Source: Hydrolagus affinis
Taxonomy: Eukaryota
DNA length: 64,000 bases
Direction: 5' to 3'
NCBI GenBank assembly: GCA_012026655.1
Contig: JAAILG010001178.1
Span: 1 to 64,000, forward strand
Shown here: in pieces, positions 2,145 through 26,395 of the stretch
Layout of the letters: each line of letters starts with the position of its first letter
How positions within the stretch are numbered: the stretch's first letter is position 1
Translations under genes and position numbers: made by a program
The notes under the pieces: generated by a model
Told to the model about the DNA's origin: nothing
Database searches by the model: none
Seen by the model: the letters and a program-made list of their open reading frames with translations, nothing else

Positions 2145-2790
2145 AACAACACAATTATATTTGCATAGCTCCTTTCACATCAGGAGGACGTCCCAAGCAC
2201 TGGACAGTTATTGATTCAGACTCCAACTGAGGAAAGGGTGGGGGTTGGGGGAGGAGTGGCCAATGGGTCCATCAAAGAGGAGAGTCTTGAGATGAGACTT
2301 GAAGGAAGCTAGGGAGGGGGCGAGGCGGATGGACTTCGGGATGGAATTCCAGAGGTTGGGGGCAGAGTGGCTGAAGGCTCGCCCTCCAATGGTTGGGCGG
2401 GTGGGTTGTCTGACATGGAGCAGGCCAGAGCCAGGATCTTGAATTGTATCCTCTGGATGATGGGGAGCCAATGGAGTCGGGCAAGGATGGGGGAGATGGG
2501 ATCACGGAGTTTGGAATGGTAGACGACATGGGCAGCAGAGTTCTGGATTATCTGCAGCCTGTGGAGGGAGGAATTGGGAAGGCCGGCCAGCAACGCATTT
2601 GCATATTCGAGCTGGGATGTAATGAAGGCGTGGATGAGGGTTTCGGTGGCTTTAGGGGTGAGGTAATGGGGGAGTCGGGAAATGTTGCGGAGGTGGGGAA
2701 AGGCAGAGCGAGTCATTGCTTGGATGTGAGGGAGGAAAGACAGTTGAGGGTCAAACAAGACACCTAGGTTCCTGACTGGCTGGGTGAGGT
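2145..2790 (-). mobile_element. L2-clade LINE 3' fragment
   Basis: FDPQLSFLPHI...LHWLPIIQRIQFKIL. Confidence 0.9.
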
Positions 2791-2801
2791 GTTAACATAA
2801 A

Positions 2802-3356: not shown

Positions 3357-6300
3357 CTGGACAACAAAAATACACAGATTAGTCATAAATACAAATGTAC
3401 ATATACTACTACTAATAATAATGCTTGCATTTGATATAGCGCTTTTTATGTCTTCTAGATGTCTCAAAGCGCTTCACAGAATATACTGTAAAGTGAATTA
3501 ACTGTATATTTGTGGGCGAAACGCGGCAGCCAATTGCCTGACCATGGGAGCCTCTCCCCATCAGCTTATTGGCTGCACCTAGTGCACACAACAGAGTTAA
3601 TTGATGGTCCAGGACTACATTGATCAACAGATATTATGAGGTATACTACTATATCTAATGATTGATATAATCTAAAAAGGTGTAATTTACAAGGTATGAG
3701 AAAAGGCAGGTAAATGTGATTCAATGGATTACTCTTTCAAAGATAGAGCCCAGACCCAATGGGCTGAATGGCTTTCTGTTCTGTATGGTTCTGTGTTAAA
3801 AATTGGCTCCAAACTTACAGTTTTTGAATTAAATGAGATGCTCCCTGCAATCTAGACAACATTCCTTTTCCTAGATTTATGTTTAGCAAATGATGAGATC
3901 ATTTTATGCAGATGAGATCTATGAATCTGAAAGAGCAAGAATTCAATGATCAATCCATGAAAGAGTAAGGACTATTAAAGTCATTTTTTTTTATCTCTAA
4001 TGTGAAAACCTGTGTATTTTAGTGGATTTCTCTGGTTTCTTTTCCAATTCAAAAAAGGAGAAAATATGAGGGGGAAACAATTTGTACCCAAAAAAAAACC
4101 CACAGGTGAATTGGGTAAAAATCTGCCACTGATTTTAATTTTCTGTCCTTGGAATGCTAGGCAGAGAACATAGGATGACTCTGAACACTTCTTTGACTCA
4201 AATCACGAGCAACAAATAGTACCATACAATGCCATGAGCAACACAGCAGGGTACAGAAGTCACCTGTGAGAGAGCAACTTGCATGTCAATGGGTGTAACA
4301 CATCCCATGGCTGATGAGAAGCCAAGAAAGTTAGAAATTATTTTGCGGAATTTAAAGAAAAACAATCACATTTCATCAAAACGCTGGGTATTCATGGTGA
4401 AAATAGTAACAAATGATACTCACAGTAGATTTGACAAATTCTGAAATCTTTTGTCTGGGCTGTGGAACAGATTTTGCGAAACTTGAGAACAATTTTCTGC
4501 GTGGGAAATATCTTGATCTTGGATGGAAATTGCTTGTACGTTCCAGCAACCGTTTACCAAAGTTACTTATATTCAAATGCTTCTTACTGTCATCTGGGGT
4601 TGCCTGTGATCCATAAATACAATATTCAGACACGAGTGCGCAAGCGCAACCTAGTCTGGTTGTAGGACACTCTCTGACACCCTTATTGTCCTCACCTATT
4701 CATTATTAAATATAATTATTAAGGGCAAGATAAGGAAATGGATTTGAAAATGTTTGGAGGGAAGGAAGTCGAAGGCAGCAGCTAGTGGAAGCTTGGTCAA
4801 AATGAATGGTGCCTCTGGGATCTGTACTGGAACCCTCCTGGTCCTTGTACATATTAATAGTTTGGATTTGCAGACCTAGAGTAAGGTTGTTAAAGATATA
4901 AATGACAACAAGTTAAGGGGTTTGTGTTAGGGTTTGTAAGAGCTTTGCTAACCCTGGGCAGATAGGGCGGGATACATAAAGCAGGCCGATGTTTGTTGAG
5001 GAAACTGAGGGTTGCAATAGGTCACAGCAGTAGGTTAAGTGGAGACTGTGGGGAATTTGTAAGTGAGAATGAGGATTTTGAATTAGATCCACAAAGGTTT
5101 GGAGAACCAGAGGAGCTGATGAAAGATGGGGTGATAGGCCACATTGCCTGATATGGGAGCAGACATGGGATGCAGAGATGTGGATAGCCTGCAACTTGAG
5201 TAGGCGAGGCCTGGGGGTCCAGGGAGAAGAGCATTAGTATAGACAAACCTGAATGTGAGGAAAGTGTGATGAGAGTCTCATCAGCTTGGAGGAATAGCAG
5301 AGGCAGCAATATTACAAAGTTGAGAGACAGCTGAGCAAGTAAGGGCCCAGATGTGGAGCTTGAAAGACATTTGGAGGGTCAAACAAGACACTGAAGTTCT
5401 GCTTAGTTATACATAAGAACGTAAGAATTAGGAGCAGGAGTAGGCCATTCAGCCCTTGAGCCTGCCTCACCATTCAATAGGATCATGGCTGATCTTCTAA
5501 TCTAACTTTACCTACCTGCCTTATCCCCATATTCCTTAATCCCTTTATCCACAAGAAATCTATCAATCTCAGTCTTGAATATGTTCCTCTGGAGTAGAGA
5601 ATTCCATAAATTTATTATCCGTTGAGTGAAGAAGTTTTTCCTCAACTCAATGCGAAATGGCTGACCCCTTATTGTAAGACTTTGATCCCTGGTTATAGTT
5701 TCTCCAACCAAGGGAAACATTCTCCCACTATCTACTCTGTCGTACCCCTTAATAATCTTATAGGTTTTCATAAGATCACCTCTGATTCTTTTATATTCTA
5801 GAGAATATAGAATATTCTCGGCCTAGATTTAGGCCTAGATTGCTCAACCTATCCTCATAGCTCAGCCCAGGTACCAACCTAGTGAATCTACGTTGTACCC
5901 CCTCCAAGGCGAGTACATCCTTTCTTAAATAGGGAGACCAAAACTGCACACAATATTGAAGGTGTGGTCTTACCAGGGCCCTATACAGGGCAGCAAGACT
6001 TCCCTACTTTTATATTCTAACCCCTTTGTAACGAACGCCAACATACCATTAGTCTTCGTAATTGCTTGCTGTACCTGCAAACTAATTTTCTGTGACTGTT
6101 GTACAAGGGCACCCAAGTCTCTCTGAATACTAACATCATCTAGTCTCTCCCATTCGAAAAAATAATTTGCTCTATTGTTTTTACCACCTAGGTGGATGAC
6201 TTCACACTTCCCTACATTATACTTCATCTGCCACCTACTTGCCCACTCACTTAGCCTATCTATATTGCATTGCATTATTTTAATGTCATCCTCGGTGTTT

Positions 6301-9300
6301 ACTCTCCCTCCTAGTTTAGTGTCATCCATGAATTTGGATATTTTAGGTTTGATGTCCTCATCTAGATCGTTGATGTAGATTGTAAATAGTTGAGGCCCAA
6401 GCACTGATCCTTGTGGCACTCCACTAGTCACATCCTCCCAATCTGAGAAGGACCCATTTATCCCAACTCTCTGTTTTCTTCCGTTAGCCATTCTTCAATC
6501 CATGCTAATATATTCCCCTTAATTCCATGGGTCCTCATCTTGTGGATCAACCTTTTATGAGGCACCTTATCGAATGCCTTTTGGAAATTTAAATACACTA
6601 CATCTACTGATTCCCCCTATCTAATCTACTTGATACGTCGTCAAAAAATCTAAAAGATTTGTCAGGCATGACTTTCCTTTTGTAGAGCCATGTTGACTCT
6701 GCCTAATCATATTGTGGTCCTCTAAATATCCTTAATTAAGGATTCTAGAATTTTCCCTACCACTGATCTCAGACTAACTGGTCTATAGTTCCCCATCTTT
6801 TCTCTCCCTCCCTTCTTAAATAGTGGTGTGACATTTGTGATCTTCCAATCAATGGAAACTGTTCCAGAATCCAAAGAATTTTGGAAGATCAGACACAAGG
6901 CCTCCACTACCTCATGAGCCACCTCTCTGAAAATCCTAGGATGCAAACCTTTAAAACCCTAGGATGTTAGTTGACTCATCACTCATCAAAACAGTATTTG
7001 TATTTTCACTCTATAGAGTTTAACCACAGCCTGCTGTAATTTGAGATTACCTGACTGGCTACTTCATTGTCATTCTCTCGTTATTTATTATTTTTTTCTG
7101 AGGAATAGGAAAACAGCATGAAGGATTCAGCCTGTCAAGCCTGTTTGTTCAATCATGGCAGATATTTTAATCTCAAAGCCCTGCCTTTTCACCATATCCC
7201 TCATTACCTTCTACTGTACAAGTATTTGTCCATTTCTCTTGTAAACATCCATGTCAATTCTGCCTCTACACTTTCTGTGGCAGAACATACCACCTGTTAA
7301 TAATAATGATCCTTGCATTTGATATAGTACTTTTCACATATTCTGGACGTCTCAAAGCACTTCACAGAATATACTGTAAAGTGAATTGACTGTATATTTG
7401 TGGGCAAAATGCAGCAGCCAATTGCGCACAGTGTCCCTGGATTGAAACAGTTGTGGATTGAAATGATCAATTTTATTAGAGAGGTTGATATTAAGCGTGT
7501 GAAGTAAGGAAACGTGCCCAAGGTTTCGCCCTGATCAGCCTGGATTCGAACAGAGTCTCACGCTTGTAAGGTGAATGCTCTAACCACTGAGCTACAGGAC
7601 TCCACCTCTTGACAACAGATTATAAATTGAAGTTGTTGTTGTTATTGATGAGAGAAATGCTGCTTGACCTCAGTTCTAACTATATTAATTTAGAATTTAA
7701 GCCTCGCTCCTCATACCCCGTAATGAATTTCTCTACCAAAGGAAAGAGTGGAACATCTTGTTGTCAATCCTATTCATTATTTTTTAAATGCTTGCCCTAA
7801 CCCCAGTGTGTAGCAGTAAAAAGAAATAATCGAATATCTGTTGTCAATAGGAATAAACAAACTCAATACTTGTTAACTACAAGATTTGTTAACTACAACT
7901 ACAAGATTGTAATGAACTTACCGAATATGTATTCGCTGAGGACACTCTTAATGATAGTGTTGAGAGTGATTCACGACTTGGTGTGTCCATCTTCAAATTT
8001 TCTGAGACCTGCGGGCCACTGATTAAAGATGTTTTGAAAAGGACTACTGAACTTTTAATCTCTACAGGCCTCACATCTGATGGTACTGTATAATCATCAG
8101 GAGCGCTCACAAACTGCAAGAGCAATAATCAAAATGATCAATTACCAATACTTAGGTGACTTTGTCAGCTTCAAGATTGTCTGCTGAGCAGCTTCATTGA
8201 CTGCACTCAATTACATGCAGATTAAATATGATTAACCAGCACTTGCTGATCCAGGATTGCAGAGATTCCACCAGAATTTATTAAATTCTCAGAAGTTCAT
8301 CTGTAGTGCTAACAGCAACCAGAAACAATTTCAGGAGACGTCAATCCTTCTTACTTTATTTTGGGCATTCCCTGAAATATGCCCCAAAACTCCTCTCCCT
8401 TCAATCCCTCTGTTTTGCCCTCTCCCTCCCCACTTTCAAATCCTACCTAATGCCCTTCATTTTTGTTCGTGCTTACTATCACCTCCCCCCTCCTTCTTCC
8501 TCTGGCATGGTCAGGACGCTACTCCTTGTGAAAGGCACTATATAAATGGAAGTTTTTGTAGTTGTTGTAGTATTCCTGGTCATATCACTTTACATTTAAA
8601 TCTACTTGGTGTTAGCCTGGATCAATTGGTTACACACTCAATTCTGTATCAGAATGGATTCAAGCAGTAGAACGTGACTTTGAACTCACAAATCTAGATT
8701 CCCCCAAGTGCAGTATTATGTCCCTGCATGGTTCAAAAGGTGATATTGAAGGTATTGATTGTAGGAACAAGGGGCATTTTGTTATTTTGGTCAGCCAACT
8801 CCACCGCCCGCATAATCACCCGCACCAAGCTTCATACCCCGATTCCCTAGTCTTTGCCAAACTACACTGGCTCTCTGTCACAGAGTGGATCGACTTCAAA
8901 ATTCTCACTCTTGTGTTTAAATCCCTCCACTCCTCAGCATGTCCCTACCTCTCTAACCTTCCTCTCTCCTCACAGGAGTACCCGCTGCCTCAACTCTACT
9001 GGGTCTGGCCTCCTCCTTGTTCCCCAAATCCTCCACTCTAACATCGCCAGCCATGCTTTCAGCCACTAAACCCCAAAATCTTGGAATACCCTCCCACAAC
9101 CCTCTTCACCTCACTCCCTCCTTTTCAATCTTCAGGCTCCTTTCTCTTTGACTGAGCTTATGGTTACCTCCCCACTCCCCCTGGTTTGGCCTCGAGCTCC
9201 GCCATTATGAAGTACTCAGAGATGCCACCCAGCATGGAGGGTGCTATATAAATGCAAGTTGGTGTTAGTGTTGTACATTATAGAATTCCATAAGAATATA

Positions 9301-12300
9301 TTGGTGTACATACCATCTTTGTATCTTGAAATGTGTCATGTGATTCTGTTGGATAGGAGAGCAGAGAATATTGAGTGACCTAAAGATCATCAGCTGGAAT
9401 AAACAAGCTATTACACGCCTAATAATAATCCGTCCAAAAAAAACCACAATAATAAAATTGGTCATTTCAATCCACGACTGTTTGTGGGACACTGCTGTGC
9501 TCAATTGGCTGCCGCGATTCACCCACAAATATACATTCAATTATATACTTTACATTCAATTATATACTTTACAAAAATATACTTTACAGTATATTCTGTG
9601 AAGCGCTTTGGGACATCGATAAGATGTGAAAAGCGCCATATCAAATGCAAGGATTATTATTATTATTAATTGAAATACAGGCAAATATAACAATATCCAT
9701 AGAAGTTTGTTGTGTTTTATTGTGCAAAGTGCTTTTATTATTATTTGCTGCCAGCAATGGTCTGGCTAATATCAATTAGCAGATTTAAGATAATTGCACG
9801 AATCAATTTGTTTTGGTGCCACAACAAAACATTTTGCATCAGGTATTGCGTATAATGTATCCTTTAGTGACAGTCAAGGACTAGATAGCTTCAGGTAGAT
9901 TCAGCACACCATCGTTTCATTCACTGAAGACGGTATCCTTCCCACTCACCTCTTGTTAACCCCTTCCCCTTGTCCCTATCTGACAGTTCAGCACCTTGGG
10001 ACGTCCTCCCAACGTGAAAGGCACTCTAAAAATGTAATTTTGTTGCTGTTGAAAATCAAAACCCTAATGGTCATAGCTGGACAAGTATTGGGAAGCTTGA
10101 TCGAAACAACCTGATTTTTTGCTGGTTAGACTTCAGCAATACACCACCAACTCACACACTTTCCCTTTCATATAGGGAAATTTCCATACATAGATAGATG
10201 GCATATAAATGTGGAACTCTCAGTTTGGTTTGGATACCCTTCAATCATAGGTTTCTGCTTGTATCAGACACCCGGCAAGAAAAAAGAAACAGTCCAGACT
10301 GACACGACAATGCAACCCATGTATTGTGTTTTATAGCAACTATCCAGTTTCCAATGGACAGTGATAACATTTTTTAAAAGTCACTATATATTCATTAATC
10401 GCCCATCTGACTCAAAAGTATTGCTTTGTGCTAGAAATGGAAATATCATTTGTAAGTAATATTAGTGAAGCTGTTCTGAAATTGTTTTTGTGGCACTAGT
10501 TGTAGAGAAGTGGCTTTGCTCTTGACTTTGTCGAGGAGCAGCTAACAAGACTAAAACAACATGTGAAATGGCCTCATCCATTAGCAATTATTCTTTAGGC
10601 CATGTAATGCACCTGTCATAAAGAACCAACAAAAAACAACTAAAAAGCTCATTAAGTGTGAAAAAATGGAGTATGAGGGTAAGTTAGCTGGGAACATTAA
10701 GTCAGATTGCAAACATTTTTATAAATATATTAATCCTCTGGATCTTTTTTTGGCCCCTTAAGAGGAATAGGCTAGTGAGAGTAAATGTAGGTCCACTTCA
10801 GGCAAAGATGGGAGAAGTTGTAAAGGGGCATAGTGATATCGCGGAGTCCCGAAATGAATACTTTGCGTATCTAGGGTTCACCCTAGAAGACACAACAAGT
10901 CTGCCAACAATAGGGATGCACCAAGGGGTAAATGACAGGGAGCAACTTAGGGAAATCTTCATTAGCAGAGAATTTGTGCTAGGGAAACTATTAGCACTAA
11001 AAATTGATAAATCCCCTTGTCCGGATGGCTTGCACCCCAGGTTCTTAAAAATGGTATCTTATGAGATAGTGGTGGCCTTGTGTCTGATCTTCCAAAATTT
11101 CTTGGATTCTGGAACAGTCCCCATGGATTGGAAGATCGCAAATGTCACACCATATTTAAAAAGGATGGAAAGAAAAAGATGGGGAACTGTAGGCCAATTA
11201 GTCTGACATGGATGATAGGAAAAATGTTAGAATCCTTGATTAAGGATATTTTAATGTGGTATTTAGGGGAGCATGATATAATTAGGCCAAGTCAACTTGG
11301 CTTTACAAAAGGAAAGTATTAGTGTGCAGAGGGACTTGGGTGTCCTTGTACACCGAACACAGAAAGTTAGTATGCAGGTGCAGCAGGCAATTAGGAAGGC
11401 TAATGGTATGTTAGCTTTCATTATGAAAGGGTTAGAGTATAAGAGTAGGGAAGTCTTGCTGCAGCTGTATAGGGCCCTGGTGAGATCACACCTGGAATAC
11501 TGTGTGCAGTGTTGGTCTCCTTATTTAAGAAAGGATGTACTTGCCTTGGAGGGAGTGCAGTGTAGGTTTACTAGGTTAATACCTGGAATGAGGGGGATGA
11601 GTTGTGACGATCGGTTGATTAATTTGGGCCTATATTCTCTGGAATATAAAAGAATTAGAGGGGATCTTATAGAAACCTATAAGATTATTAAGGGGCATGA
11701 CAAAGTAGATAGTGGAAGATTGTTTCCCCTGGTTGGAGAATCTAAAACCAGGGGTCACAATCTTAAAGTTAGGGGTCAGCCCTTTCACACTGAGTTGAGA
11801 AAAAACTTCTTAACTCAAAGGGTGGTGAATGTTGAATTCTTTACCCCAAAGGGCTGTTGATGCTCAGTCGTTGAACATATTCAAGACTGAGTTAGATAGA
11901 TTTCTCATTTATAAAGGGATTAAGGGGTATGGGGATAAGGCAGGTAGCTGGAGTTAGAGTAGAATATCAGCCATGGCAGGGCAGGCTCGATGGGCCAAAT
12001 GGCCTACTCCTGCTCCTATTTCTTATGTTCTTGTCCTACACCTTGACCTCCTTTTCCAGGAGCAACTTGTCTACATAAGCACACTTAGTGAAAAAAATTA
12101 AAGCTTTATTTTGCAGGATTGAGGACATATCCAAACTTTCTTGTCTTAATGATGTGATAGTCATACTGGTCAGTCATCAACAGTACTTTGGATTACTGCC
12201 AATCAGCCCGGCTTTAACGCTTGTGGATCCTTGAAGTCAGTGGAGTCACTGCTTATTTCCATACCCTCTACCCTCATTTCAAAACATATTTCCTTAGATA

Positions 12301-15300
12301 TGGTACTCATGTATTGACCATAAAAGGTGAAATACTTTGTGGATTCAAATGCAGTTTGCGAAAGAACACTTAAAAAGCCTACTCAGTGAGGTTGTAGCAA
12401 AGGATATTGATTGAGGATCATCACCAGAAAAAAAAAGGGGAGTCAGTTGTAATTCTTGTTTGCAGAGATGGTTGTTGAAATAGGGTGTGCCTTATCACAA
12501 GTGGAATGCATTTAAAAGGTTTATGGCATGGGACATAGTATATAATCTTTTGAGGTACCTGTACTTACCTTCTTACAATCCAATAGCATAATATAATATT
12601 AATATAATATAATATAATTTTCTACTCAGTGATGTACCTGAAATATCCAGAGAACTCATAGAAAAACCAGCTGTTGCTTCAATTAACATATTCCCTGCCT
12701 GAAATGAAGGAGAACCTGGAATGAGTCTTCAGACTTAAGATGCTTTTTTGGTCTAAAAGCATACAACAACAATTTGCATTTATATTGGGCCCTTCGTGCG
12801 AGCAGCATCAAAATGGTGAATCTTACTGAATCTGTTATCCCTTTGCTTCTCTCCTGAATTTACAGTTTAGGGGTTTATCAGATTGATAAACCAACTCTTA
12901 TCCATCAGACATACTGTATTCTTGTCATAGGAGAACCGAGCTCTACTACTAGATTGAATGGAATAATCACAGATAAAAAAGATGCTGAGTTAACAGTTTG
13001 GCATTTTCAACGTTCTGTTCTTGGGAAATATTGAGTTGCAAAGGCAGAGGTCCATCATAGGATACCATTTTCAGAGCTGTGTGACTGCTTTTGATGTTAA
13101 CGACCACTAACACTAAAGAACACTAACACTGATGCCCAATCCTGGTAAATAACTGGTGAACTGGTCCAATTTATATCTGAACCTGCACTCATTTGTGGGG
13201 TGAATGACTTGGGAAAGGTACAGAAAGTCGTAGATTCTCTATTCTATTCTGTTCACAAGCTAAGCATTATTTTAGGCTTTAAAGTGCACTTGATAATCTT
13301 GCCTGGGAAGTTTTCTTTTCGAATCTGGACCACCTATCAGTTCTTCCGGTTTTCTTTAGGATCAGCCTTTCCATATAATCCATCCGTTGTTCTTGAGTTT
13401 TCTGTCTGTCACATTCATTCCTCAAGTATTCCAGTCTGAAATAAGAGGTTTTAGAGACAAATTTCACAGAAGAGACCAGGATCAAGGTATCTCTTTAGGA
13501 AGGGAGACTCACTTTGAAGAGGAGTTAGGCATAGAAACAGTGTTATTTTGTGTAGCAGACAAGACGTCTTGATGCATGTCGAATAATAACAACAATAATA
13601 ATAATTATTGCCCAGCGAGTTTTTCGGATCTGGAATACATTACCTGAAAGGGTAGTGAAAGCCGATTCAATAACAACTTTTAAGAGAGAAGTAGATGGGT
13701 ATTTGGGGAGCACAAGATAATAATAACGATAATAACAATCCTTGCATTTGATATTGCAGAGCTATGGAGAGAAAGTAGGCCAGTGGGATTGAGTTGGACA
13801 GCTCTTTTCGGAGCCAGCGCAGACTCGATGGCCACGTTATTATTGATTCTATAATAATCAACCTTGCATTTGATTTAGCGCTTTTCAAGTCTTCTAGATG
13901 TCTGAAAGCACTTCACAGAATATGCTATAAAGCAATTTGACTGTATATTTGTGGGTGAACATTGCAACAAATTGCGCACAGCAGTGTCCCACAAACAGTC
14001 ATAAATTGAATTACCGATTTATTATTGTTGTTTTGAGGGATTATTATTAGTTAGGCGTGTGGAGTAAGGAAGGTTTGCCCAAGGTTTTGCCCTGCCGGGA
14101 ATCAAACCCAGGTTTCGCATTTGTAAGATGAGTGCTCTAACCACTACAGGACCACAAATGAAATGGTTCGGAAGGTGAAGGGGGCAATGGAGTTAAGGAT
14201 GGAGGAGAGGGAGTTGTGGAGGAAAGGGAGCGAAGAGGGTAGATCGGTTTGCGAGAGGCAGAGGGGTAGGAGTTGTGATGACTTCAGGGCAGCAGAGACG
14301 GAGCGGGAGGAGATATTATTTTACCAACGGAGGTAGTGGTGGTAGAGGGTTGAGTAAGGGGAATTGTATGGGGGTGTAAAAGGAGATTAATTGGTGGACG
14401 GAACTGGCTTTAACGGTGATGGTGATGTCTGAGATGGTGAGAACCCGGGTAATCACCAGCTCAAGATGGTGGCCATGGATGTGGGTGGTGGAGTGGATAT
14501 AGAAAGAGAGGATGAGGGAGGGAGGAGAAGTCAGCAGAGGTAGAGCAGGAGGGGGTGAAGTGGAGGTTGAAGTCACCTAAGATGAGGGGGCATTCAGAAC
14601 AGAGGAAGAGGAAAGACAGGAGGGTGGAGATGTCCAAGGGGAAGGTGGGGGAGGGCTTGGGGGGAACGGTAGACAAGTAGCTAACAACCATACAAATAAT
14701 CCTTTTAATAATCCCTACATTTTGAGTTGGTTCTCTGGACTTTTTTTGGCCCCTTTCTGCTGAGGTTATTCAGTAGTATGAGATGCCGTCTGGCATGGAG
14801 GGCATTGAAGTTGTTGCTGTTGTTGTCCTCGATTCTTCTTGATTTCTCTATCGCCTTCAACACTGTCAATGATGATATCCTTCTCCAGCTACTCTCAGTT
14901 CCACCTTCTTGCTTCTGTCCTCTCCTCTTATTACTCTTATCTATCCCAGTGTTTCTGCTTCATCTCTTTTAATTGCTTCTCCTCCCATTTCCACACTGTC
15001 CCACTGTAGCATTGAGTGGGGCTCTATTCTTAGTCATCCCCTTTTCAACATCTACATGCTCCCACTTGTTGATGTTATCTGCACGCAGTGGTTAATATCC
15101 ACATGTATGTGGATAACACCCAATTCTGTCTTTTTGCCTTCACCCTCAATTCGAGGACCATTGCTTATTTGACGGTTGCCTGTTAGACATCAAGCACTGG
15201 ATGTCAACATAAGGAGCCTTTTCCTGAACTTTACAGTATATTCTACAACATGGTAGGATAGGTTCATAGAATCACAGAATCATAGAATTGTACAGCACAC

Positions 15301-18300
15301 AAGGAGGCCAGTTGGCCCATTGTGTCTGTGTCTGCTCTTTGAAAAGAGCTATCCAAATCAAATTCCACTCCCCTGGTCTCTTCCCTATAACCCTGCAAAC
15401 CAAATAATTATCTACTTCTCTTTTAAAAGTTGTTATCGAATCAGCTTCCATCGCCCCATCACCCTTGATTCTCCCGACATAAAAGGTAGGCACTGTATCA
15501 AATTAAAGGATTTTAAACATTATTTGGCTGCTGTAAACAACAATTTGGTATTGACAATTTGACATTGGGGGTAAATTTGGATGAGCAGGAAATATAAACA
15601 GGAGTGGGAGATACCTGACTGTCAGTGTGAATCCTAAGGCAGACAGAATCTAATGCGTGACTCAATCCAAAAAAGGGATGATGATCAATAAATTCAATAA
15701 TAAATTGTAAACTTTTATGGTGCAGAATGTTGTTAGGAAACATTTTACGCTGTGGTTGCAAAGCAAACCTGAATAAAGATTACAAATACTTGCCTTTTTC
15801 TCGAGTGTATCAGGTTCATGATTTTTGGGGGCACTCTAGTGAAGGTATCCCCAGGGTCAGGTGGTTGCTCCACTTGCTGTTCTCTCTCTTTGCTTAGGGG
15901 GCCCACAGATATGCGTAGTTCTTCAGGCAGGAACTCCGGGTATGGCATGAGCTTGTAGTTAACCACATTACTATATAAGAGAAGTTCAACATCGAAAAGC
16001 ATGGAATGAGGAAGGACCATTCCGTTCCTGAAGCTCAACCCTTTCTGACAAAACATGTACAGCATCTACTCTTTCCTAATTCGTTTAATCTTGCATGAGA
16101 GGCAAATTATTTAGCATTTCCCAGATTTATCCTTGGCACTCTTCTCTGAACTCCCTCCCAGTGTATCCACATCCTTGAAACATAAGTCAAATTTTGCAAA
16201 CAAAATACTAATTTTCACAAGTAACATCCATTGTAATCTCCAGTTTCATGCATCATCTCGCAGTGGAAAAGCCAGTGGAACACAAATTGTTTGTGTGCGC
16301 GTGTGTGTACGTGTGTGTACAGCTTGTAGTTTACAGACTTTGGAGTCCTATAACTCAGTGGCTAGAGCACTCACCTTGCAAGCGAGAGACCTAAGTTAAA
16401 TTCCTGGCAGGGTAAAACCTTGGGCAAGTTTCCTTGCTCCACATACCTGATAATAATCCCTCGAAAAAACCCAATAATAAATTGGTCATTTCAATCCGTG
16501 ACTGTCTGTGGGACACTACTGTACACAATTGGCTGCTGTGTTTTGCCCACAAATATACAGTCAATTCACTTTACAGTATATTCTGTGAAGCACTTTGAGA
16601 CACCTAGAAGATGTGAAAAGTGCTATATCAAATGCAAGGATTATTATTATAAATGCTGGCTTACGAATGTGTTATAATTTGTTAAAGTCACATGGAGTGA
16701 TGCATCAACTGGGTGCTAAGGCCAACTGATTTTTGTGGTCAGCTGGGTGAGTTACCCAAACAGTAACATGTCACTATGTTTAACGTATCCAAACAGACAG
16801 CTCCACATATCTATACACCTACACATAGAACTTTCCCTGTGAGTTGAATGAAGTGTGCATTCTCTCTAGAGGAGTGACAGCCAAGGTTTGGTTGCAACTA
16901 ATTACTGCAGTACCTATACTGTCTTCATCTAATAACCCTCAACGTTGAATGCCTCACATTGGAAATTTTTGAGTACCCACTCCATAATTGGGAGGAGCAA
17001 TCAAATCCATGCTTTTACCTGGATCATCAAAGGAGTAGTTCATATTTATTTTGTCTTCTAGCACAGGATCATTTCTTTAGTACAGTATTGGTAAATGTCA
17101 TTTACTTACTAGATATTGTCTTTCCTATTATCCTGTGGAGGAATTCGGAGGAAGATCGATTGTTCATTGATTTTTTGTTTGTCTTTTTCCTTTTGCTTCA
17201 GCTGATATGAAGAGTAAGCCATTTAAAACATACAGCACATGCTTTGAGGTAACTACATTCCATGCTCATTATAAGGCACTCCTCAGAATTCAAGCATTTT
17301 ACATACAAGTCAATAATTATAATAAAATGTGCAACATATATAAGTGTAAATAATCAATCAATATCCAACAACATTAAGTGAATAATAGAAATACTTAAGA
17401 TGTGGACAGACAGACAAAATTCAACTGTAGGAAGTTAGCTCTCATCCAATCTGTCAGGACAGTGGTAGTCCTGGAGTCGAGGGTAGAGACAAAGAGATAG
17501 AGTTGGGTGTCATCCGCACATGTGAAAGTTAACTCCATGTCTGCGGATGATGTCACCAAGTGGGAGCATATAGATGTTGAAAAATAAGGGGCCAAGGACA
17601 GAGTCCTGGGAGACGCCATAGGTGACAGTGCGGGGGCCGGAAGAGAAACCATTGGTGGTGACAAAGTGTAGGCAATGAGAGAGGTAGGCAAAGGCAGGTC
17701 TGCAGAGATTGAGGAGGGAGGAAAGGCACTGTAGGAAGATGGCATGGTCGACAGTGTCGGAAGGCGGCGGAGAGGTCAAGGAGGACAAGGAGACAGAGAT
17801 GTGATATGAAAGGTGTTATATAAGTGTAATTTTGTTGTTGTATTCTTATGTACTTATTCTGCTCTCCCCCACTTGCTCTGCCTTCTGCTCTATGGTGCCT
17901 TGGTTTGCATTCAGGCCTCCTTCCCCAGACTTCTCCCTCATCCAATGTAATAGGTATATTGTAGCTGTTGGACAGGACCAGTGCCTCTTTCTCTACCTCT
18001 ATGGGTTTCTACTACCATGCTGGCTATCAATCGCACAATCCTGTTCCTCTACCTCTCTATGTGGCTTGGCTATGTTCTGAAGTAAAACGTCCAAATAGTT
18101 CATTCCCTTCCTTCTGGAGTGTCTCTAACACTCCAAATCAAAAACCCTGAGCCAGAATGACTCAAGACTTTCTAGCTTCTACTCTTCTAAAGTTTAGGAT
18201 TATTTTAATATATATTTATATTTACAAGGTTTTAGCTTTGCCTTGTATATTGTTCATTTATTTTCCCCTTAATCTACTTTACTATTAACAATTTCAGGGT

Positions 18301-21300
18301 AAATAGGTAAACAAGTAATTTCACACCTTTAATCCCTTGCTCACACTCCTTAATACTGTACGTAACACCTACTCAACACCTACTGCCTCAGGAATGTGAC
18401 CTTTTGTCTAGGCTCTAGCTACTTTTGTCTTTCCTTTACAAGGACATTGAAACAAGTTCTCACCTGCACCTCCTTCCCTCTCTGCACCAAATTCCCACTT
18501 GCCTAATTGCCTAACAGAATTCTCACTCTGTTCCACGTCACTCAGTCCCAACAACAACAACAACAACTTGCACTTATAGAGCGCCTTTCACATCGGGAGG
18601 ACGTCCCAAGGCGCTGCACAGGAGGCGTGTGACCCGAGCTGGGAGGGGAGTGTTCGGGAGGGGGTAAAAAACGTAAGGGAGGTCGAAGAATTAGGGGGGG
18701 AACAGAAGGCACGGTCGAAAAGGAAAGTCTTCAAACTGGCCTTGAAAGAGGAAAGGGAGAAAACAAAGCGGAGGGATGGAGGGATGGAGTTCCAAAGGGT
18801 GGGAGCGGAAAAACTGAAGGCCCGGCCTTTGATGGTGGGGCGGTTCGGGCGGGGGGCTTGGAGCAGGCTGAACGGAGGGACCGGGTGGGCTTGCAGGGGG
18901 AGAGTAGATCGGAAAGATAGGGCGCGGCAAGGCCGTGTAAGGCCTTGAAGGTGAGGACGAGGATCTTGAACTCGATCCTCTGGGGGATGGGGAGCCAATG
19001 GAGACGGGCGAGGGTGGGGGTTATGTGGTCGCGGAGGCGGGTGCGGGATAGTACACGGGCTGCAGAGTTTTGGATCATCTGCAGCCTGTGAATGGAGGAG
19101 CTGGGGAGGCCAACAAGGAGAGAATTCCCATAGTCCAGCCGTGAGGTGATGTACGCGTGCACGAGTGTTTCAGCAGCTTGGGGAGTGAGATAATTGCGGA
19201 GCCTGGCAATGTTGCGCAGGTGGAAATAGGCAGTGCCGGTCTAGGCGCGGATGTGGGGGAGGAAGGAGAGTTTGGAGTTGAATGTGATGCCGAGGTTCCT
19301 GACTGGCTTTGTGAGGTGGAGAGTACAGCCTCGGATGTTGATGCTGGCAGCGCCTGATGTGCGGAGGCGCTGGCTTGAGCCAATCAGGAGGGCCTCGGTC
19401 TTGCTCATGTTCAGTCCCACTCAGTCTCACGCTGCTGTGCTCTCTGCTTCTTTGCAAGGTTGGCATGTTCATTAAACTCACACTAGTTGGGGATTTCTTT
19501 TCACGGTGATAAATGGTTAAATGGTGCCACAGGTGGACAACACATGATAACAACTGGGTAATGTATTTGCCACACAAGTGATGCTTCCCCCACAAGATTT
19601 TTAACTGGAACATACCTGATGAGAGAAATTGTATCCAAAGCATCCATAGGCAAAGCTTATTGTCAGCTCAAGGTTACAGACATGCTGAAAAATGTAACAC
19701 CATATTATTATTAGAGGAAGTATGACTCTACTCTTCAAACATTCAAACATATCCCTATCTCTGTCCATATCTTGTCCCACACAGAACAAGGTGCTGAATG
19801 TCATGCATCTCATCATCTGCCTCAGTAGATTATTTTCAAGTTACTTGTCCTTAATTTCAAATTCTTCCATAGACATTTTCCTCCCAATCTGTGAAAACTT
19901 TTAAATATCCTACAGTTCAGCTCAGCCCAGCCAACGTCCTCTGCTTTTCTACTTGTGCTCCACTCACTCCTCTCCACCATTGGAAGTCAAGCTTTTAGGC
20001 AGTCCACCTCTCTCTCTCACATGCACACAGTATTATATCCTTCCCAGTGCCACTAAATGAAATACTTACCAAGTTCTTGATCCCCAGTTCATATTGTTCT
20101 GTGCGTGAAACATTCTGAAATGCAAGCAGACAGTTTTATATCAAAAGCAAACATTATATCATTAATATACACTGTCTATGTAATTATAAATGATAAACAA
20201 ATATTGTGTTTTATAGGAACAAGGGTAGACCCTTCAAGCCTGTTCCGCCATTTAATCGGATCATGGCTGATCTGTACCTCAACTAATGCTTTCAATTCCA
20301 CTTTCCCGCTTTATCCCCATATCCTTTAACATCCTGATACCCTGACCCTAATAACCTGGTAAGCCAGCAAGCGGCAGGGACAGGTGTGAGCCAGTGACCG
20401 GCAGGGACTGTCAGGGGCCAGCGAGTGGCAGGGCCTCAAGGAACCCAAGTGCATGGACATTCGAGTGGGAGACCAAGAAGAGACCCAGATAACCCAAGTG
20501 GAAGCCATGGGTTGAAAATTGCAGTCAAGAAAAGGCGGGAGAGGGAGGTCGAGGACTGGCATGGAAAATGTCAAGACTCTACCTGTACAGCACGTGCCAA
20601 GACCACGCTCAAGATGAGTGGTGACGGCAGTGAGGAGAGGTAGAGTCTCAGCTGTTTCAGCCATTTCAAAATTTTCCACCTGAATAACGGCTGAATCTCG
20701 CTGCCGACCATCACTTCCTGCTGCCATTTTGATGGCCGGCCAGCTGGGCAAGGTAGGTATAGTGAACGTCACTTCCTAGCGCCAGTTTCAAATCCAGCAG
20801 GGAAGGTTAAGTACAGTATATTCAATCATCATTCTGCTACCTTGTCCACCCAGTCCCTGGTAAGCCATGACCCTCTCCCACTGTGCTGTCTGGATTCCTT
20901 GATTTGGATTCCCCCACCAGAGGAAATAGCTTTTCTGTATCTATCTTGTCAAATCGCTTTATCATCTTAAATACCTCAGTCAAGTCACCCCTCCACCTTC
21001 TAAACTCAAGGGATACAACCCAAGTTTACACAGGCTTTCCTCATAACTTAACTCTTTTAGACATTCTGGTGAACCTGGGCTGTCACCCACTCCAGAGCCA
21101 ATATATCTTTCCTGAGGTGTGGTGCCCAAAACTGAATGCAATACTCCAGATGGAGTCTGACTAACACTCTGTACAGCTGAAGCATAATTTCTTCCCCTTT
21201 GTATTCCAAACTCATTGAGATAAAAAGCCACCCACCTTTTTGATTACGCTTTGCACCTGGGAATTAGTTTTTAGTGATTTGTGGATATGGAAGGCCAAGT

Positions 21301-24300
21301 TTCTTTGCTGCTCCACAGTTCTTAATTTCTCCCCATTAAGAAAATATTCTGCTTTATCTTTTTTTGGTCCATAGTGGACAACCTCACACTTCTCTACATT
21401 GAACTCCAACTGCCACAGTTTTGCTCACTTACTTAATCTGTCTAAATTCCTTTGTAACTTCCTATTTCCATCTACATAATTTACTGAACCTCCGATTAAT
21501 GTTGTCTGCAAGCTTGGATATAAAACTTTCTATTCCTTCATCTCTATGGAAAGGTTTACTATCTGCACCCTCTCACTGATCATAAATTCTCCTCACCAGA
21601 GGATAACATGGTCTTGATCCAACACTGGTCTTCAACTGGGATAACTTTACCAAAAAATGCCTTCAATCAGCTTGGTAGTCTAGATAGAAACTTGGTCACA
21701 CAGCTCTGCAAAATTATTAGGCGTAAACTCTGGGGTTTACAATGATCCTCTATAATGGTATGGGCCATATGGGCTATTCAACAACAACAACAACTTGCAA
21801 TTTATATAGTGCCCCTTGCACAAAGTAGCGTTCATCTTTCCTTCTACCTCTAGCATGGTCAGCAAGCATCAATTAATGTAAAATTTACCCGAATAATATT
21901 TATCAAGTGGAGTTCAGTGTGACCAAGAAGCCTGTGTAAAGCAGAGTGCCGTTCAATTTCAATCAGCTCCACTGTGATCCTGTTCCTTTCATCATTTATA
22001 CGTCTTGGAACCTAACAAGTTAGGAACAACAACAACAAAATTAAATTTGCATAGTGCCTATCATGTCGGGAATATGTCCCAATGCCCTGAACAGACAGTA
22101 TTCCAGACCTTTTCTGGGAGTAGGGTTTGGGGATGGTGGAGGGCTGGGGGCTTGGGAAGGAGATTGATTGAAGCACAGTCAAAGAGAAAGGTGTTGAGGG
22201 GGGTCTTGAAAGGAGCAAGGGATGGGGAGAGTTGGAGGGACTGTGGATGGAGTTCCAGAGGGTGTGGGCAGATTGACTGAAAGTCTGCGCACCAATGGTG
22301 GGGCGGTAAGGGAGGGGTACGCAAAACAGACTGGAGCCTGCTGAGTGGAGGGTGTGAGTAGGTGGTAGGGGGTTAGGAGGTCGCAGAGGTAGGGGGCAAT
22401 GAGGCCATGGAGGGCTTTGAAGGTGAGAACTAGAATCTTGAACTCTATCCTCTATGTGATGGGAAGCCAGTGGAGTCGAATGAGGGTGATATGGTCACAG
22501 AGTCTAGTACAGGAGAGGACATAATCTGCAGCCTTTGGAGGGAGGAATTGGGGAGGCCGACATGCAAGGAGTTTGCTTAGTCAAGCCTGGATGGTATGAA
22601 TGCATATATGAGAGTTTTGATGGCAGGTGGTGTGAGACAGTGGCGGAGCTGGGCAATGAGGACAAGGTGGGGGAAAGCAGAGTAGGTCATGGCACAAATG
22701 TGGAGTAGAAAGGACAGTTGAAGGTAGAACAAGACGCCAAGATTCCAGACTGACTTAGTGATGTGGAGTGTGCATCGATGGATGGTGATGCTGAGGTGTG
22801 GAGGCTGATGGGAGCCAAATAGGATGGCCTTGGTCTTGTTGATGTTCAATGAAAAAAGTTAGCTTTCATCCAGGACTTGATGTCTGACAGACAATTTTTT
22901 GACTGACTTTCACCTTATGGCTGTTTGTAAGACCTTGTTGGTGCAAATGGCTGTTATACAAGCCTACAAAAACAGTCACCACACTAGCCAGGTTACCTCA
23001 AATGTGATAGGGTACTGTAAAACATTCTTCCTTTACCTATCTTTACCAGTATGGTACCTGGAATGAGGGACTTCAATTATCAGGAGAAGCTAGATAGATA
23101 AGATTATTTTCCTTGGAGCAAAAGAAGCTTAACAGAATTTTTCAAAATTATCAAGGGATTCGATTGGGTGAACAAAGAAAAACTATTTCCACTGGCATGT
23201 GGGTCGGTAACCTGAGAACACCAATTTAAAATAGTTGTTAAAAGAAACAGAGGTAAGCGAGGAGACATTTTTTCACCCAGTGAGTTGTTCAAATCTGGAA
23301 TGCATTGCCTGAAAAGGTGGTGAAAGTCGATTCAATAACAGCTTTCAAGAGAGAAATAGAAAGTGATTTGGGGAGGACAGGTTTGCAGGGCTACGGGGAG
23401 AATGTGGGGGAGCGCGATTGATTTGGACAGCTGTTTTTCAAAGAGCTGGCACAGACATGATGAGCCGAATGGCCTCCTTCTGTGCTGTATAGTTCTATGA
23501 TTCTATGATATCTTGAACATCCAGACTTAGTTTTGCAATGTGCGAGACAATTCTATACCTGAACAACGAAGTACTTGACTTCTTCGAAATGAATAATCAT
23601 TTTGGATTTCTTCAACTTCAAGATATCCTTAACGTGGTGAGGCATCGTACATTTCTGTTTATCCCCTATAGTGATGCGGATCATCAGCTGCATTTTCCTT
23701 CTCAGAACCACTGCAATGGTAAATTCCTTAAAGAAAATAATCCCAATTTTTCAAAGATCCCAGTTATCCTTGAGCAAGTCACTGATTACTTAACGGGTGT
23801 CTCCTTTCATCTGCTCCATGGCTTGCAGTGGGGTCCATAGGCTGTTTGGTGCCGTGCCCACATGAGGAACATGAAAAGACAGGTGGCAAAGTAAAGTGAA
23901 TTCAGAAAAGACTTTAGGTCAATGGTGGTTTGAAGGGAGTGGGTAGTGAGCAATGGGAATAAAGATTATAGTAATGAAGTGATAGTATGAGATGGCCTTG
24001 TCATGGATGGTGAGTCTGAGTTGGTGAAGCCACTCCTCACTCTTGTGTTTAAATGCCTCCACTCCACTCGGCATCCCATATCTCTCTAACCTCCTCTCTC
24101 CTCACAGTACTACCGGTTGCCTCCGCTCTACTGGTCTGGCCTTCTCCTTGTACCCCAAATCCTCTGCTTCACCATTGGCAGCCATGCTTTCAGCCACTAC
24201 GCCCCAAAACTTTGGAACTTCCTCCCTCAACCCCCTTGCATCACCCACTCCTTTCCCATCTTCATGTCGTACATGAAGAGCTTTCTCCACGATGGCGCTT

Positions 24301-26395
24301 ACCTGCAGGAACTGGCGCTCTGCTGCCCAGGAACTGCAGGTAAGCAGACATAAATTGTTAACGACCCAAAGAAATTGTCTGAAACTGAAAAAAAATTATC
24401 TGAGATGTCAAAGACAAGGGTTGACAGTCTAATAATATATAAAGCCCACCTCCAATTGTTTCTACCCATTCATTCTCTGCCTGTGTGTTCTGTACTTTTA
24501 GGAGCTTTTATCTGGAGGGTTGTGAGTTGCCAATGGAGCTGTATCTGTACTTACAGGAATCACACCCCCCCAAATCATTTACTGTTGTCCAAAGATGAGC
24601 TCTTTGAAGACTGATCTTTTGAAAATATTATATTGAGAAAATCAGCAGAAAGTACCTCCAGACAGTGAAATCTGCAAGCTGAGTAAAAGGATACGTGTAT
24701 TGGTAAAGTCCTGGCAGTGTTTGATATGAAATGATATGCAACCAATCTGCAACCAAAATAGTTAAAAATCAGACAACAGAAACTTTACAGACACCGTCCA
24801 CACACCTCAGACCTGGGCCCCAGAAATTATGTCCCTACCTCTTTGAGACACTTAGGTACAGACTCTACAAATTATGCTGTTCAGTAAGGTGTCAGGTTTG
24901 ATTATTGATCTGAGTTAGTTGCTTTTAGCTGGAGCAGTGGTGTGCGCGGGTTGTGTGTGTGTGTGTGTGTATTTCACCCACAAATACACAGTCAATTCCC
25001 TTCACAGTATACTCTGTGAAACTCTTTGAGACGTCTAAAGTTGTGTAAAGCGCTATATCAAATGCAAGGATTATTAGTATTATTATAATAAACGAATGTC
25101 CAAAAAAAAACTGGAGTCCATTATAATATGAATGACTCAACTCACCCATCATCCACGATTCTATAGTATCTATGGTTTGATATCTACAAGCTGCAGGAAT
25201 GAACTAACTTACTGGCTCATCTTCAGTTACAAGCTCGAAATCAGATGGGTTGAGAAACTCTGTATGTTCTTCCTCATCTTTCTTTAATTTGGAACTTCCC
25301 ATGAAGCTCTGCAATAAGAGTGAAATCTCAGCATGAGGGTAATGTATACATCGATTACAAAACCAGAATGAGCAATAATAACAACATCAAAATTACATTT
25401 GTATAGCGCCTTGCACATCAGGAGGATGTCCCATGGCAATGCATTGGAAAAATACCTATACAGTAGTTAAAATATTATTTTTGAACTTGTCTATGCTGAT
25501 ATTTATACTCCACATAAATCTCCACCCATACTCATCCCTTCTCTGTATCTCTCTCCTTCCCATACTTGTGTATTCCCTCCTCGCTTATGTTTTCTTTTGT
25601 ATTCAATGTTTTATGTTAGCTGATCTTATCCTGAGCAACAGTGGAGTGCTACTGGCTTCTGAGGAGATGCCTTAGGATTCTTGCTACTGAATGTTGTTAA
25701 GAGATCTGTGCTGGCAGTTTGCAGTCAAATGTTAAAATCCCACAATACTTTTTCAAGCTAAAATTCTAGTAAATAATTGTACTATGGAGTCCTGCAGCTG
25801 AGTGGTTAGAGCAGTTGCCTTGCAAGCAGGAGACCTGGGTACAACTCCAGGCAGGGCGAAACATTGGGCAAATTTCCTTACTCCACATGCCTGATAATAA
25901 ACTTGGCTGACACGTTTCGCCCAGAAATATACAGCCAATTCACTTTACAGTATATTCTGTGACATGCTTTAAGATGCCCAGAAATCGTGGAAAGCACTAT
26001 ATCAAATGCAAGGATTATTATTATTACTGATTAAAATGGTGATTGTGGACTGTGCTGTGGGCAAAATGGTGACATGCTTGCCTACAGTCAGTGCACATGA
26101 TAGGAATTGCCCATGAAGTTCTTTAAGGCATCTCAACATATAGGCATCGTATCAAATTGAATCACTTTGATAATAAATCTAGATTTACCTGGAGAAGTCC
26201 AGGTTGCTTGTCTTTGTTGGAGTAAGCTTTAGTGCTTGAAGACGCATTGACATTGGTTCTTCGAGATGAAGTTTCTGTGATTTTAGGCACTAGCCACTTG
26301 GAGCTTAATCTTTCATTGATGTCAGTTGTGCGGTTCTGTTGGGATGTGGTGGATACTGGAATTATATTTGCCAATTTCTCTCTGAATGGTAACAT
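2802..26395 (-). CDS. C2CD6: C2 calcium-dependent domain-containing protein 6 (ALS2CR11 / CatSper-tau); 15 coding exons, ~720 aa; 3' end uncertain
   Basis: Assembled exons give [14 protein letters not shown]...IRITIG..KCT...[29 protein letters not shown]...[24 protein letters not shown]...YPEFLPEEL, matching recalled human C2CD6 motifs (IKFDEVKYFSVQVPRR, FSYGNFGYGFSHQLK, YPAFL). Phases consistent throughout. Human C2CD6 and NBEAL1 are both on 2q33. Confidence 0.88.
3089..3168. repeat. 21-bp coding minisatellite (ctgctgacccacgtcttgaat, ~3.8 copies; degenerate units extend ~3020-3210)
   Basis: Directly visible tandem units starting at 3089, 3110, 3131, 3152. Confidence 0.95.
3413..3540 (-). 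mobile_element. SINE 3' half
   Basis: Same body and tail as full-length copies. Confidence 0.8.
4424..4603 (-). CDS. C2CD6: C2CD6 probable exon 14 ([10 protein letters not shown]...EFVKST)
   Basis: cacag acceptor, gtgagt donor, 180 nt open. Confidence 0.7.
4915..5400 (-). mobile_element. Old, degraded L2 fragment
   Basis: Remnants ETLI, S.LQV, LHWFSK..FKIL. Confidence 0.65.
5410..6950 (-). mobile_element. CR1-clade LINE 3' fragment (RT core and 3'UTR), frameshifted
   Basis: [35 protein letters not shown]; 3' end ggcctactcctgctcctaattcttacgttcttatgt. Confidence 0.93.
7298..7602 (-). mobile_element. tRNA-derived SINE (full length)
   Basis: ggagtcctgtagctcagtggttagagc head through (ATT)n tail. 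Confidence 0.9.
7922..8113 (-). CDS. C2CD6: C2CD6 probable exon 13 ([16 protein letters not shown]...ANTYS)
   Basis: ttgcag acceptor, gtaagt donor, 192 nt open. Confidence 0.7.
8820..9265 (+). mobile_element. L2 3' fragment (older subfamily)
   Basis: [17 protein letters not shown]; tail gctatataaatgcaagttg. Confidence 0.8.
9314..9345 (-). CDS. C2CD6: C2CD6 probable micro-exon 12 ([11 protein letters not shown])
   Basis: Pyrimidine-rich acceptor, ATG|gtatgt donor, 32 nt, phase 1 to 0 restores the frame. Confidence 0.55.
9412..9668 (+). mobile_element. SINE 3' part with internal tandem duplication (atatactttaca x3)
   Basis: SINE body and tail match. Confidence 0.82.
10620..12032 (+). mobile_element. 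CR1-clade LINE 3' fragment with internal deletion of the RT core at ~11315
   Basis: [20 protein letters not shown] joined directly to VQRDLGV..., [13 protein letters not shown]1 3' end. Confidence 0.92.
12638..12698 (-). CDS. C2CD6: C2CD6 probable exon 11 ([20 protein letters not shown])
   Basis: Strong acceptor, CAG|gtacat donor, phase 0 to 1; no homology support. Confidence 0.55.
13303..13435 (-). CDS. C2CD6: C2CD6 exon 10 ([28 protein letters not shown]...KTSQ)
   Basis: tttcag acceptor; helical segment resembling recalled human RLEKMKKEY...NYLE; donor probably CAG|gcaaga. Confidence 0.75.
13852..14153 (-). mobile_element. tRNA-derived SINE
   Basis: Head, body and tail match. Confidence 0.87.
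14160..14690 (-). mobile_element. L2 ORF2 endonuclease-region fragment
   Basis: LILGDFNLH and [13 protein letters not shown] (APE endonuclease motifs). Confidence 0.75.
14826..15210 (+). mobile_element. L2 RT fragment
   Basis: [22 protein letters not shown]. Confidence 0.75.
15794..15970 (-). CDS. C2CD6: C2CD6 exon 9 ([23 protein letters not shown]...HSRK)
   Basis: ctcttatatag acceptor, GC donor AAG|gcaagt, phase 2 to 2. Confidence 0.83.
16340..16650 (+). mobile_element. tRNA-derived SINE (full length)
   Basis: Head, body and tail match. Confidence 0.9.
17110..17201 (-). CDS. C2CD6: C2CD6 exon 8 ([30 protein letters not shown])
   Basis: AG acceptor, gtaagt donor, 92 nt, phase 0 to 2. Confidence 0.87.
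17415..17800 (-). mobile_element. L2 RT fragment
   Basis: [31 protein letters not shown]. Confidence 0.88.
18549..19412 (-). mobile_element. Young CpG-rich L2 3' fragment
   Basis: [42 protein letters not shown]; (GTT)n tail. Confidence 0.92.
19616..19684 (-). CDS. C2CD6: C2CD6 exon 7 ([23 protein letters not shown])
   Basis: tttcag acceptor, gtatgt donor, 69 nt; family-typical YGxFGYxFSHQ motif. Confidence 0.92.
20070..20114 (-). CDS. C2CD6: C2CD6 exon 6 ([15 protein letters not shown])
   Basis: tttcag acceptor, gtaagt donor, 45 nt. Confidence 0.85.
20210..21545 (-). mobile_element. CR1 3' fragment interrupted by a ~500-bp insertion (20367-20855)
   Basis: [31 protein letters not shown]1 3'UTR at 20210-20350. 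Confidence 0.82.
21889..22011 (-). CDS. C2CD6: C2CD6 exon 5 ([41 protein letters not shown])
   Basis: AG/GT sites, 123 nt. Confidence 0.9.
22025..22895 (-). mobile_element. L2 3' fragment
   Basis: [21 protein letters not shown]; (GTT)n tail. Confidence 0.87.
23050..23510 (+). mobile_element. CR1 3' end
   Basis: 3'UTR with ggcctccttctgtgctgta and (ttctatga)n tail. Confidence 0.82.
23559..23710 (-). CDS. C2CD6: C2CD6 exon 4 ([21 protein letters not shown]...[12 protein letters not shown])
   Basis: 152 nt, phase 1 to 0, CAG|gtatag donor. Confidence 0.88.
23711..24694 (-). other. U12-type (minor spliceosome) GT-AG intron of C2CD6
   Basis: 5'ss GTATCCTTTT matches RTATCCTTT; branch-site-like TTTTCTTTAAG ~17 nt before the AG; this junction restores a gap-free C2 alignment. 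Confidence 0.8.
24695..24746 (-). CDS. C2CD6: C2CD6 exon 3, start of C2 domain ([17 protein letters not shown])
   Basis: ttgcag acceptor, U12-type donor GTATCCTTTT, 52 nt. Confidence 0.85.
25213..25308 (-). CDS. C2CD6: C2CD6 exon 2 ([32 protein letters not shown])
   Basis: ttgcag acceptor, gtaagt donor, 96 nt. Confidence 0.75.
25786..26026 (+). mobile_element. tRNA-derived SINE (internally deleted)
   Basis: Head and tail match. Confidence 0.82.
26189..26395 (-). CDS. C2CD6: C2CD6 probable first coding exon ([10 protein letters not shown]...GLLQ)
   Basis: ATG in AAAATG context, CAG|gtaaat donor, 69 codons. Confidence 0.65.

Follow-up and report, generated by a model that had tools for sequence, protein, structure and literature searches.

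Intron 3 of C2CD6 (CATSPERT), the gene for CatSper-tau, is very probably a U12-type intron in the cartilaginous fish Hydrolagus affinis, and likely orthologous to a minor intron already on record for C2CD6 in both human and mouse. Judging from sequence comparison and predicted RNA pairing, we give this reading a probability of roughly 0.88. The window, that is, the whole 64,000-nt stretch of genomic DNA that was analysed, carries the gene on its minus strand. The original prediction had presented the intron as though it were new; however, C2CD6/C2cd6 is already listed as a minor-intron gene in both human and mouse by Olthof et al., 2019 (PMC6717393), and the rows for the probably orthologous intron are found in that catalogue. 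What is new here is the age, as one minor intron catalogued in mammals can now be traced to the ancestor of jawed vertebrates. The intron appears to be ordinary but old, and as it stands it matters little.

The assignment of the gene to C2CD6, first made from the sequence alone, is borne out by matches to the Pfam CTSRT family (PF15729): exon 5 scores 29.1 bits, above the cut-off, and is the sole match in the genome, and exon 4 scores 23.9 bits (E 5.7e-5), slightly below the cut-off of 24.4. Exons 3-10 were placed by tblastn with five homologues, and exons 2-10 when joined yield 939 nt with zero stops (Table 1). A word-index protein search with exon 4 as the query gave no matches, and a HMMER protein search found six proteins; P0001, an ENA sequence from the HMMER search, was dropped as repetitive. 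The homologue set used below comprises 126 proteins (P0002-P0127), including the best 120 of 138 matches of one search. The nearest proteins are those of Chiloscyllium, Leucoraja, Scyliorhinus and Narcine, with a core identity of 54-58%, versus 35-41% in seven tetrapods, and the window's protein is 37% identical to the human one over 249 residues. In a tree, it clusters with these four elasmobranch proteins (100/100), branching outside both the shark pair and the ray pair at a fork that is not resolved, which marks the source as a cartilaginous fish and is compatible with a chimaera. Exons of CATSPERB are present in the genome as well. Upstream of C2CD6, on the same strand (35298-59104, minus), lies an NBEAL-like BEACH/WD40 gene with a DUF4800 match (E 3.9e-48), which we take to be NBEAL1, presumably the same gene that lies near C2CD6 on human 2q33.

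Table 1. Features of the C2CD6 locus, in positions of the window.
Feature	Position	Strand	Remark
Exon 1, coding, probable	26189..26395	minus	ATG inferred at 26395
Exon 2, 96 nt	25213..25308	minus	
Exon 3, 52 nt	24695..24746	minus	strand 1 of C2 domain, by alignment to skate model
Intron 3 of C2CD6/CATSPERT, very probably GT-AG U12-type	23711..24694	minus	984 nt, phase 1
U12-type 5' splice site GTATCCTTT	24686..24694	minus	predicted U11 duplex
Rival in-frame U2-like donor, GT at 24655	24647..24655	minus	39 nt inside intron 3
Predicted U12 branch site	23727..23740	minus	branch A at 23728 (-18)
3' splice site CAG	23711..23713	minus	TAG in near relative (run X1)
Exon 4, 152 nt	23559..23710	minus	Pfam CTSRT PF15729 profile positions 28-73
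Exon 5, 123 nt	21889..22011	minus	PF15729 match
Exon 6, 45 nt	20070..20114	minus	
Exon 7, 69 nt	19616..19684	minus	
Exon 8, 92 nt	17110..17201	minus	
Exon 9, 177 nt	15794..15970	minus	then GC-AG donor
Exon 10, 133 nt	13303..13435	minus	

Intron 3 begins with GTATCCTTTT and ends with CAG, and the reading frame stays open across the junction. The donor motif RTATCCTTT is not rare in itself: four matches occur on the two strands of the window, compared with 1.69 +/- 1.20 expected, and counts of at least four were reached in 5 of 100 shuffles. The weight of the motif therefore lies in its exact placement at a homology-defined exon end, where ATCCTTT at +3..+9 has a chance of about 1e-4 given the local base composition. 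The other matches (9857, 12407 and 20319) lie off mapped exon ends and are taken as chance occurrences.

Genes for the minor snRNAs are present in the genome, including U12 (140.7 bits), U11 (114.2 bits) and U4atac (98.6 bits), together with three U6atac-like matches (59.2, 49.6 and 37.4 bits), all above the Rfam cut-offs. The U6atac-like matches (e.g. on contigs C12683 and C431) span only 106-107 nt. The predicted duplex between the intron 3 donor and the 5' end of U11 has an energy of -8.2 kcal/mol, versus -3.2 to +1.2 kcal/mol for the donors of 13 comparison introns (eight from C2CD6 and five from the upstream NBEAL1-like gene), and the predicted duplex with U6atac-like RNA likewise reaches -8.2 kcal/mol. 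On the acceptor side, the original prediction had noted a branch-like site about 17 nt upstream of the acceptor, and an A at -18 does indeed hold the best U12 register of the 274 adenosines in the intron: the 12 bases before this A pair unbroken with the genome's own U12 snRNA (-9.6 kcal/mol, one G-U), and the register score of 8.5 is also the highest of 14 acceptors, the runner-up scoring 7.5. Such U12-pairing sites are expected at a rate of about 0.003 per 33-nt acceptor window. Unconstrained duplex energy leaves the branch site non-unique, with values of -8.6 and -9.3 kcal/mol at two other acceptors, and the branch A is followed by G in place of the usual C. Taken together, the predicted duplexes with U11, U6atac-like RNA and U12 agree with the earlier assignment to the U12-type class, a call that rests on duplex energies and our own register score in place of a PWM or intronIC. 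As a separate observation, the acceptor of intron 4 (22012-22030, minus) carries a TTCCTAAC element with a U12 register score of 7.5, though its donor is U2-type; this element is probably an ordinary U2 branch point.

The acceptor had also been described as having no pyrimidine tract. This holds in part: at -20..-4, pyrimidines make up 8 of 17 positions, the lowest value of 14 introns (11-13 of 17 in the other 13), but the tract is weak rather than absent, with 7 of 11 at -14..-4, equal to intron 2. In a near relative (run X1, about 98% identical over the contig piece), the acceptor of intron 3 reads TAG at 23713. Over the contig piece that holds the acceptor, no branch-site difference between the window and X1 is found among the 8 of 11 differences listed. 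Run X1 itself resembles genomic DNA, with a depth of about 50-60 through introns. Three single-cell RNA runs (X2-X4; one sample of organism B, about 27-30% of each read) had zero depth in the exon 1 and exon 3 bins and, with 97% of the aligned reads diverging from the window as repeats do, are uninformative on expression or splicing; no exon joints occur among the 15 of 2,257 listed.

Based upon these pairings, U11 and then U6atac would pair with the donor, U12 would pair with the 12 bases that precede the predicted branch point, the A at -18, and the CAG 17 nt past this A would serve as the acceptor. The minor spliceosome likely removes intron 3 as an ordinary constitutive step. In its extended invariant donor, its predicted branch site close to the acceptor and, less clearly, its weak pyrimidine tract, intron 3 resembles other vertebrate GT-AG U12-type introns. 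It also resembles vertebrate U12-type introns in being a lone minor intron among major ones and in not being phase 0, consistent with the phase bias described by Larue and Roy, 2023 (PMC10639083).

Five splice models were set against five homologues, and the 24695/23710 junction gave a gap-free alignment with four elasmobranch proteins and a turtle. For a broader comparison, 120 of the 126 proteins with a C2 core were used (six were dropped for low score; all are gene models, not reads). Among the matches listed, a Cys and an Arg on either side of the junction lie 18 residues apart in 108 of these 120 homologues; nine have a spacing of 17 or 19, and three are gapped. The human peptide on which the original prediction had leaned matches the retrieved human protein, P0091, and the predicted junction itself stands, with an open frame and a fit to the 120 homologues in the matches listed.

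Alternatively, the U12 motif could be incidental, the real intron being U2-type and starting from the donor at 24655, or ending at the AG at 23727. That RTATCCTTT occurs four times in the window, a count matched in 5 of 100 shuffles, would allow for coincidence, and the 24655 donor, which the original prediction had named as an alternative (GGAG|gtact), preserves the frame, adding 13 residues with no stops. However, this 13-residue insert is present in none of the 120 homologues; the 31-residue Cys-to-Arg spacing expected of it was seen in 0 of 120, and the U12 junction model beats the rival donor model in 118 of 120, in each case among the matches listed. The AG at 23727 fares no better, as it causes a frameshift and seven stops with either donor, and was rejected. 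Moreover, the conserved exon end coincides exactly with the U12 motif, and human and mouse share this donor motif. We therefore consider an incidental motif extremely unlikely. For annotation, the practical point is that a gene finder might choose the in-frame U2-like donor 39 nt downstream.

Comparison with a structural model places the junction within the protein. In the AlphaFold model of the skate orthologue P0003, two strands (residues 106-117 and 129-137) flank the junction, which falls at 122/123 between them. The model was built on a 44-sequence alignment, and its ten-residue pLDDT means are 77-97 over residues 101-240, with an overall mean of 52. A Foldseek search with the model returned C2 domains, with otoferlin C2A as the best match (E 7.9e-9) and CEP120 and dysferlin also found; no sequence relatives of P0003 were found in the PDB at E<=1. 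In this model, strands 1 and 2 of the C2 domain are joined by the first loop, which intron 3 splits, and thus the earlier placement of the intron within the C2 domain agrees with both the skate model and the Foldseek matches. Were intron 3 retained, translation would end after 135 residues, with only strand 1 of the C2 domain left. Truncation at this point is the effect of any unspliced intron there, and is therefore no evidence of regulation. In mouse, where testis expression and CatSper targeting by C2CD6 have been described (PMC8857959; 10.1101/2021.07.06.451342), a truncated C2 domain abolishes CatSper-tau trafficking (PMC8857959).

Skipping of exon 3 alone causes a frameshift and was rejected as a productive form. 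Exons 3 and 4 together (25212-22012, minus) amount to 204 nt between two phase-0 introns, such that their joint skipping would remove 68 C2 residues in frame. This raises the possibility of dual use, in which intron 3 is U12-type and its acceptor is also open to the major spliceosome, via the 24655 donor or the exon 2 donor, with in-frame skipping of exons 3 and 4 also possible, yielding minor isoforms with a damaged C2 domain. The 24655 donor is in frame and stop-free, and loss of the 204 nt of exons 3 and 4 introduces no stop. In addition, a mouse mutant with a 134-bp deletion also yields transcripts without exon 3 (PMC8857959), which suggests that splicing to the exon 4 acceptor is possible from a donor further upstream; our own extrapolation is that the major spliceosome would be the agent. 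Yet the 13-residue insert occurs in 0 of 120 homologue models among the matches listed, no other of the 14 introns scored has so weak a pyrimidine tract, and neither mouse nor human C2CD6 is tabulated in PMC6717393 among the genes alternatively spliced around their minor introns. On balance, we regard dual use as rather unlikely, and favor removal of intron 3 by the minor spliceosome from the U12-type donor.

The relationship with the mammalian intron could be examined through the catalogue entries. The human C2CD6 minor intron is listed at chr2:201601885-201603223 (1339 nt, ENST00000439140, exonic triplet AGA), and the mouse C2cd6 minor intron at chr1:59075143-59076670 (1528 nt, exonic triplet GGT); both entries are of the GT subtype, with GTATCCTTT donors scoring 89.5 and 93.0 and branch scores of 70-71 (PMC6717393). 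Because the catalogue tables give no intron rank, orthology rests on the triplets and on exon length. The aligned residues at the junction are Lys|Ile in human (codon 124 of P0091) and Arg|Phe in rodents; split at phase 1, these can end in AGA and GGT, and are thus compatible with the catalogued triplets. In comparisons with four rodents other than mouse, slots fitting both triplets numbered 3 of 1506, 3 of 1422, 5 of 1455 and 6 of 1443, and two slots, at human residues 86 and 124, fit both in all four comparisons. Slot 86 (phase 1) is the second candidate, and would lie inside exon 2 if exon structure is conserved. As for exon length, the 134-bp and 186-bp deletions made in mouse differ by exon 3, which implies an exon 3 of 52 bp (PMC8857959), equal to the 52 nt found here. 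From these comparisons, intron 3 and the C2CD6 minor intron of human and mouse are very likely orthologous.

The fish and mammalian introns are alike in several respects: the gene is the same, as are the GT subtype and the GTATCCTTT donor; the branch site is imperfect in both; the codon and phase are apparently shared; and the upstream exon has the 52-nt length of its mouse counterpart. They differ in length, and in that T replaces the second C of the usual TTCC in the branch site here, the predicted upstream pairing with U12 is longer, and the host is a cartilaginous fish. Could the two instead be introns at different positions with separate origins? The missing intron rank in the catalogue tables leaves room for this, as does Table S8 of Olthof et al., 2024 (PMC11347168), in which the human C2CD6 intron (column 560, by a hand count from the row end in two rows only, the chimaera Callorhinchus and the turtle Pelodiscus) is marked no_ortholog in both species. 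However, no_ortholog here means that no orthologue of the gene was detected, and a Pelodiscus C2CD6 protein (P0008) does exist, so the table misses fast-evolving C2CD6, at least in these two non-mammalian vertebrate rows. The triplet test and the 52-nt exon, moreover, converge on one junction. Separate origins are accordingly very unlikely in our view, and we infer that the jawed-vertebrate ancestor already carried this intron and that it has remained U12-type ever since.

A minor intron in C2CD6 was found in supplements, but no discussion of it was found in the open full-text literature (which lacks most subscription papers). Larue and Roy, who classified more than 3000 genomes, may well include shark orthologues (PMC10639083). 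Long conservation of minor introns is described in the same work as the vertebrate norm, and as possibly largely neutral; age alone is thus no evidence of regulation. Minor-intron genes are typically described there as old, whereas C2CD6 was found only in vertebrates, in protein searches of limited sensitivity. On the more speculative view that C2CD6 is truly limited to vertebrates, intron 3 would have been acquired late, which is rare for a minor intron.

C2CD6 is not the only gene of its channel complex with a minor intron. CATSPER1 and CATSPER2 are likewise testis-expressed minor-intron genes (PMC6717393), and the same source reports an enrichment of minor introns for voltage-gated ion channel activity. 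The original prediction had invoked such ion-channel enrichment, which is thus on record but does not explain the intron of C2CD6, a C2-domain protein. CATSPER1 and CATSPER2 are pore subunits and belong to the voltage-gated channel superfamily, to which C2CD6 is unrelated. The minor introns of the two pore subunits probably descend from those of the superfamily.

Minor splicing of intron 3 had been suggested to gate production of the protein, on the premise that U12-type introns are often rate-limiting. This premise is contested, as for 467 of 722 mouse minor introns retention was seen in none of eleven tissues (PMC6717393), a figure that also tells against a gate, and the authors of that study state that inefficient splicing may not hold for all minor-intron genes. 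Under a regulatory gate, developing sperm would owe the level or the timing of their intact CatSper-tau to minor splicing of intron 3 that is slow or confined to a stage. Several observations would fit: a protein made from a transcript that keeps intron 3 would stop at 135 residues, and in mouse a C2 domain that is cut short does not traffic (PMC8857959); CATSPER1 and CATSPER2 are minor-intron genes in both human and mouse (PMC6717393); and in mouse, U6atac is quickly lost from spermatid nuclei at the onset of spermiogenesis, and loss of U11 impairs spermatogenesis (PMC12956336). The main text of this U11-knockout paper does not name C2cd6 or CatSper. On the other hand, despite a testis expression of 165.7 TPM, the mouse C2cd6 intron is not among the 150 consistently retained minor introns of PMC6717393, and neither the name nor the coordinates of C2cd6 occur in that study's tables of retention and alternative splicing, in which Catsper2 is listed at 2.8%. 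The retention tables cover introns retained in all three replicates; a further 105 introns retained in one or two replicates are unlisted, and C2cd6 could be among these, while NMD could mask retention. Weighing these points, we consider a gate unlikely, and an ordinary constitutive removal of intron 3 remains the reading that we favor.

A wider form of the same idea, in which minor splicing would set the developmental timing of CatSper assembly, is speculative, and we doubt it to the same degree. It draws upon three observations: that CATSPER1, CATSPER2 and C2CD6, from two unrelated protein families, all have minor introns; that mouse spermatid nuclei lose U6atac at the start of spermiogenesis (PMC12956336); and that the intron appears to have been kept since the jawed-vertebrate ancestor although the core is only 37% identical between fish and human. 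Were it true, waning minor splicing would give rise to truncated or C2-deleted forms, by retention, use of the +39-nt donor or skipping of exons 3 and 4, that would be unable to target the channel, and minor-spliceosome defects would be linked to sperm motility failure.

Elsewhere in the locus, the intron after exon 9 has a GC-AG donor (AAG|GCAAGT at 15793, minus), backed by the open frame and by homologue alignment. A probable late exon, putatively of C2CD6, lies at 2802-3356 (minus) and is Ser/Arg-rich with short tandem peptide repeats; the elasmobranch homologues carry different repeats in their C2CD6 tails. The introns within 20200-26170 and 852-11860 contain many short high-copy repeats and retroelement-like fragments, the latter presumably resembling non-LTR retroelement reverse transcriptase.
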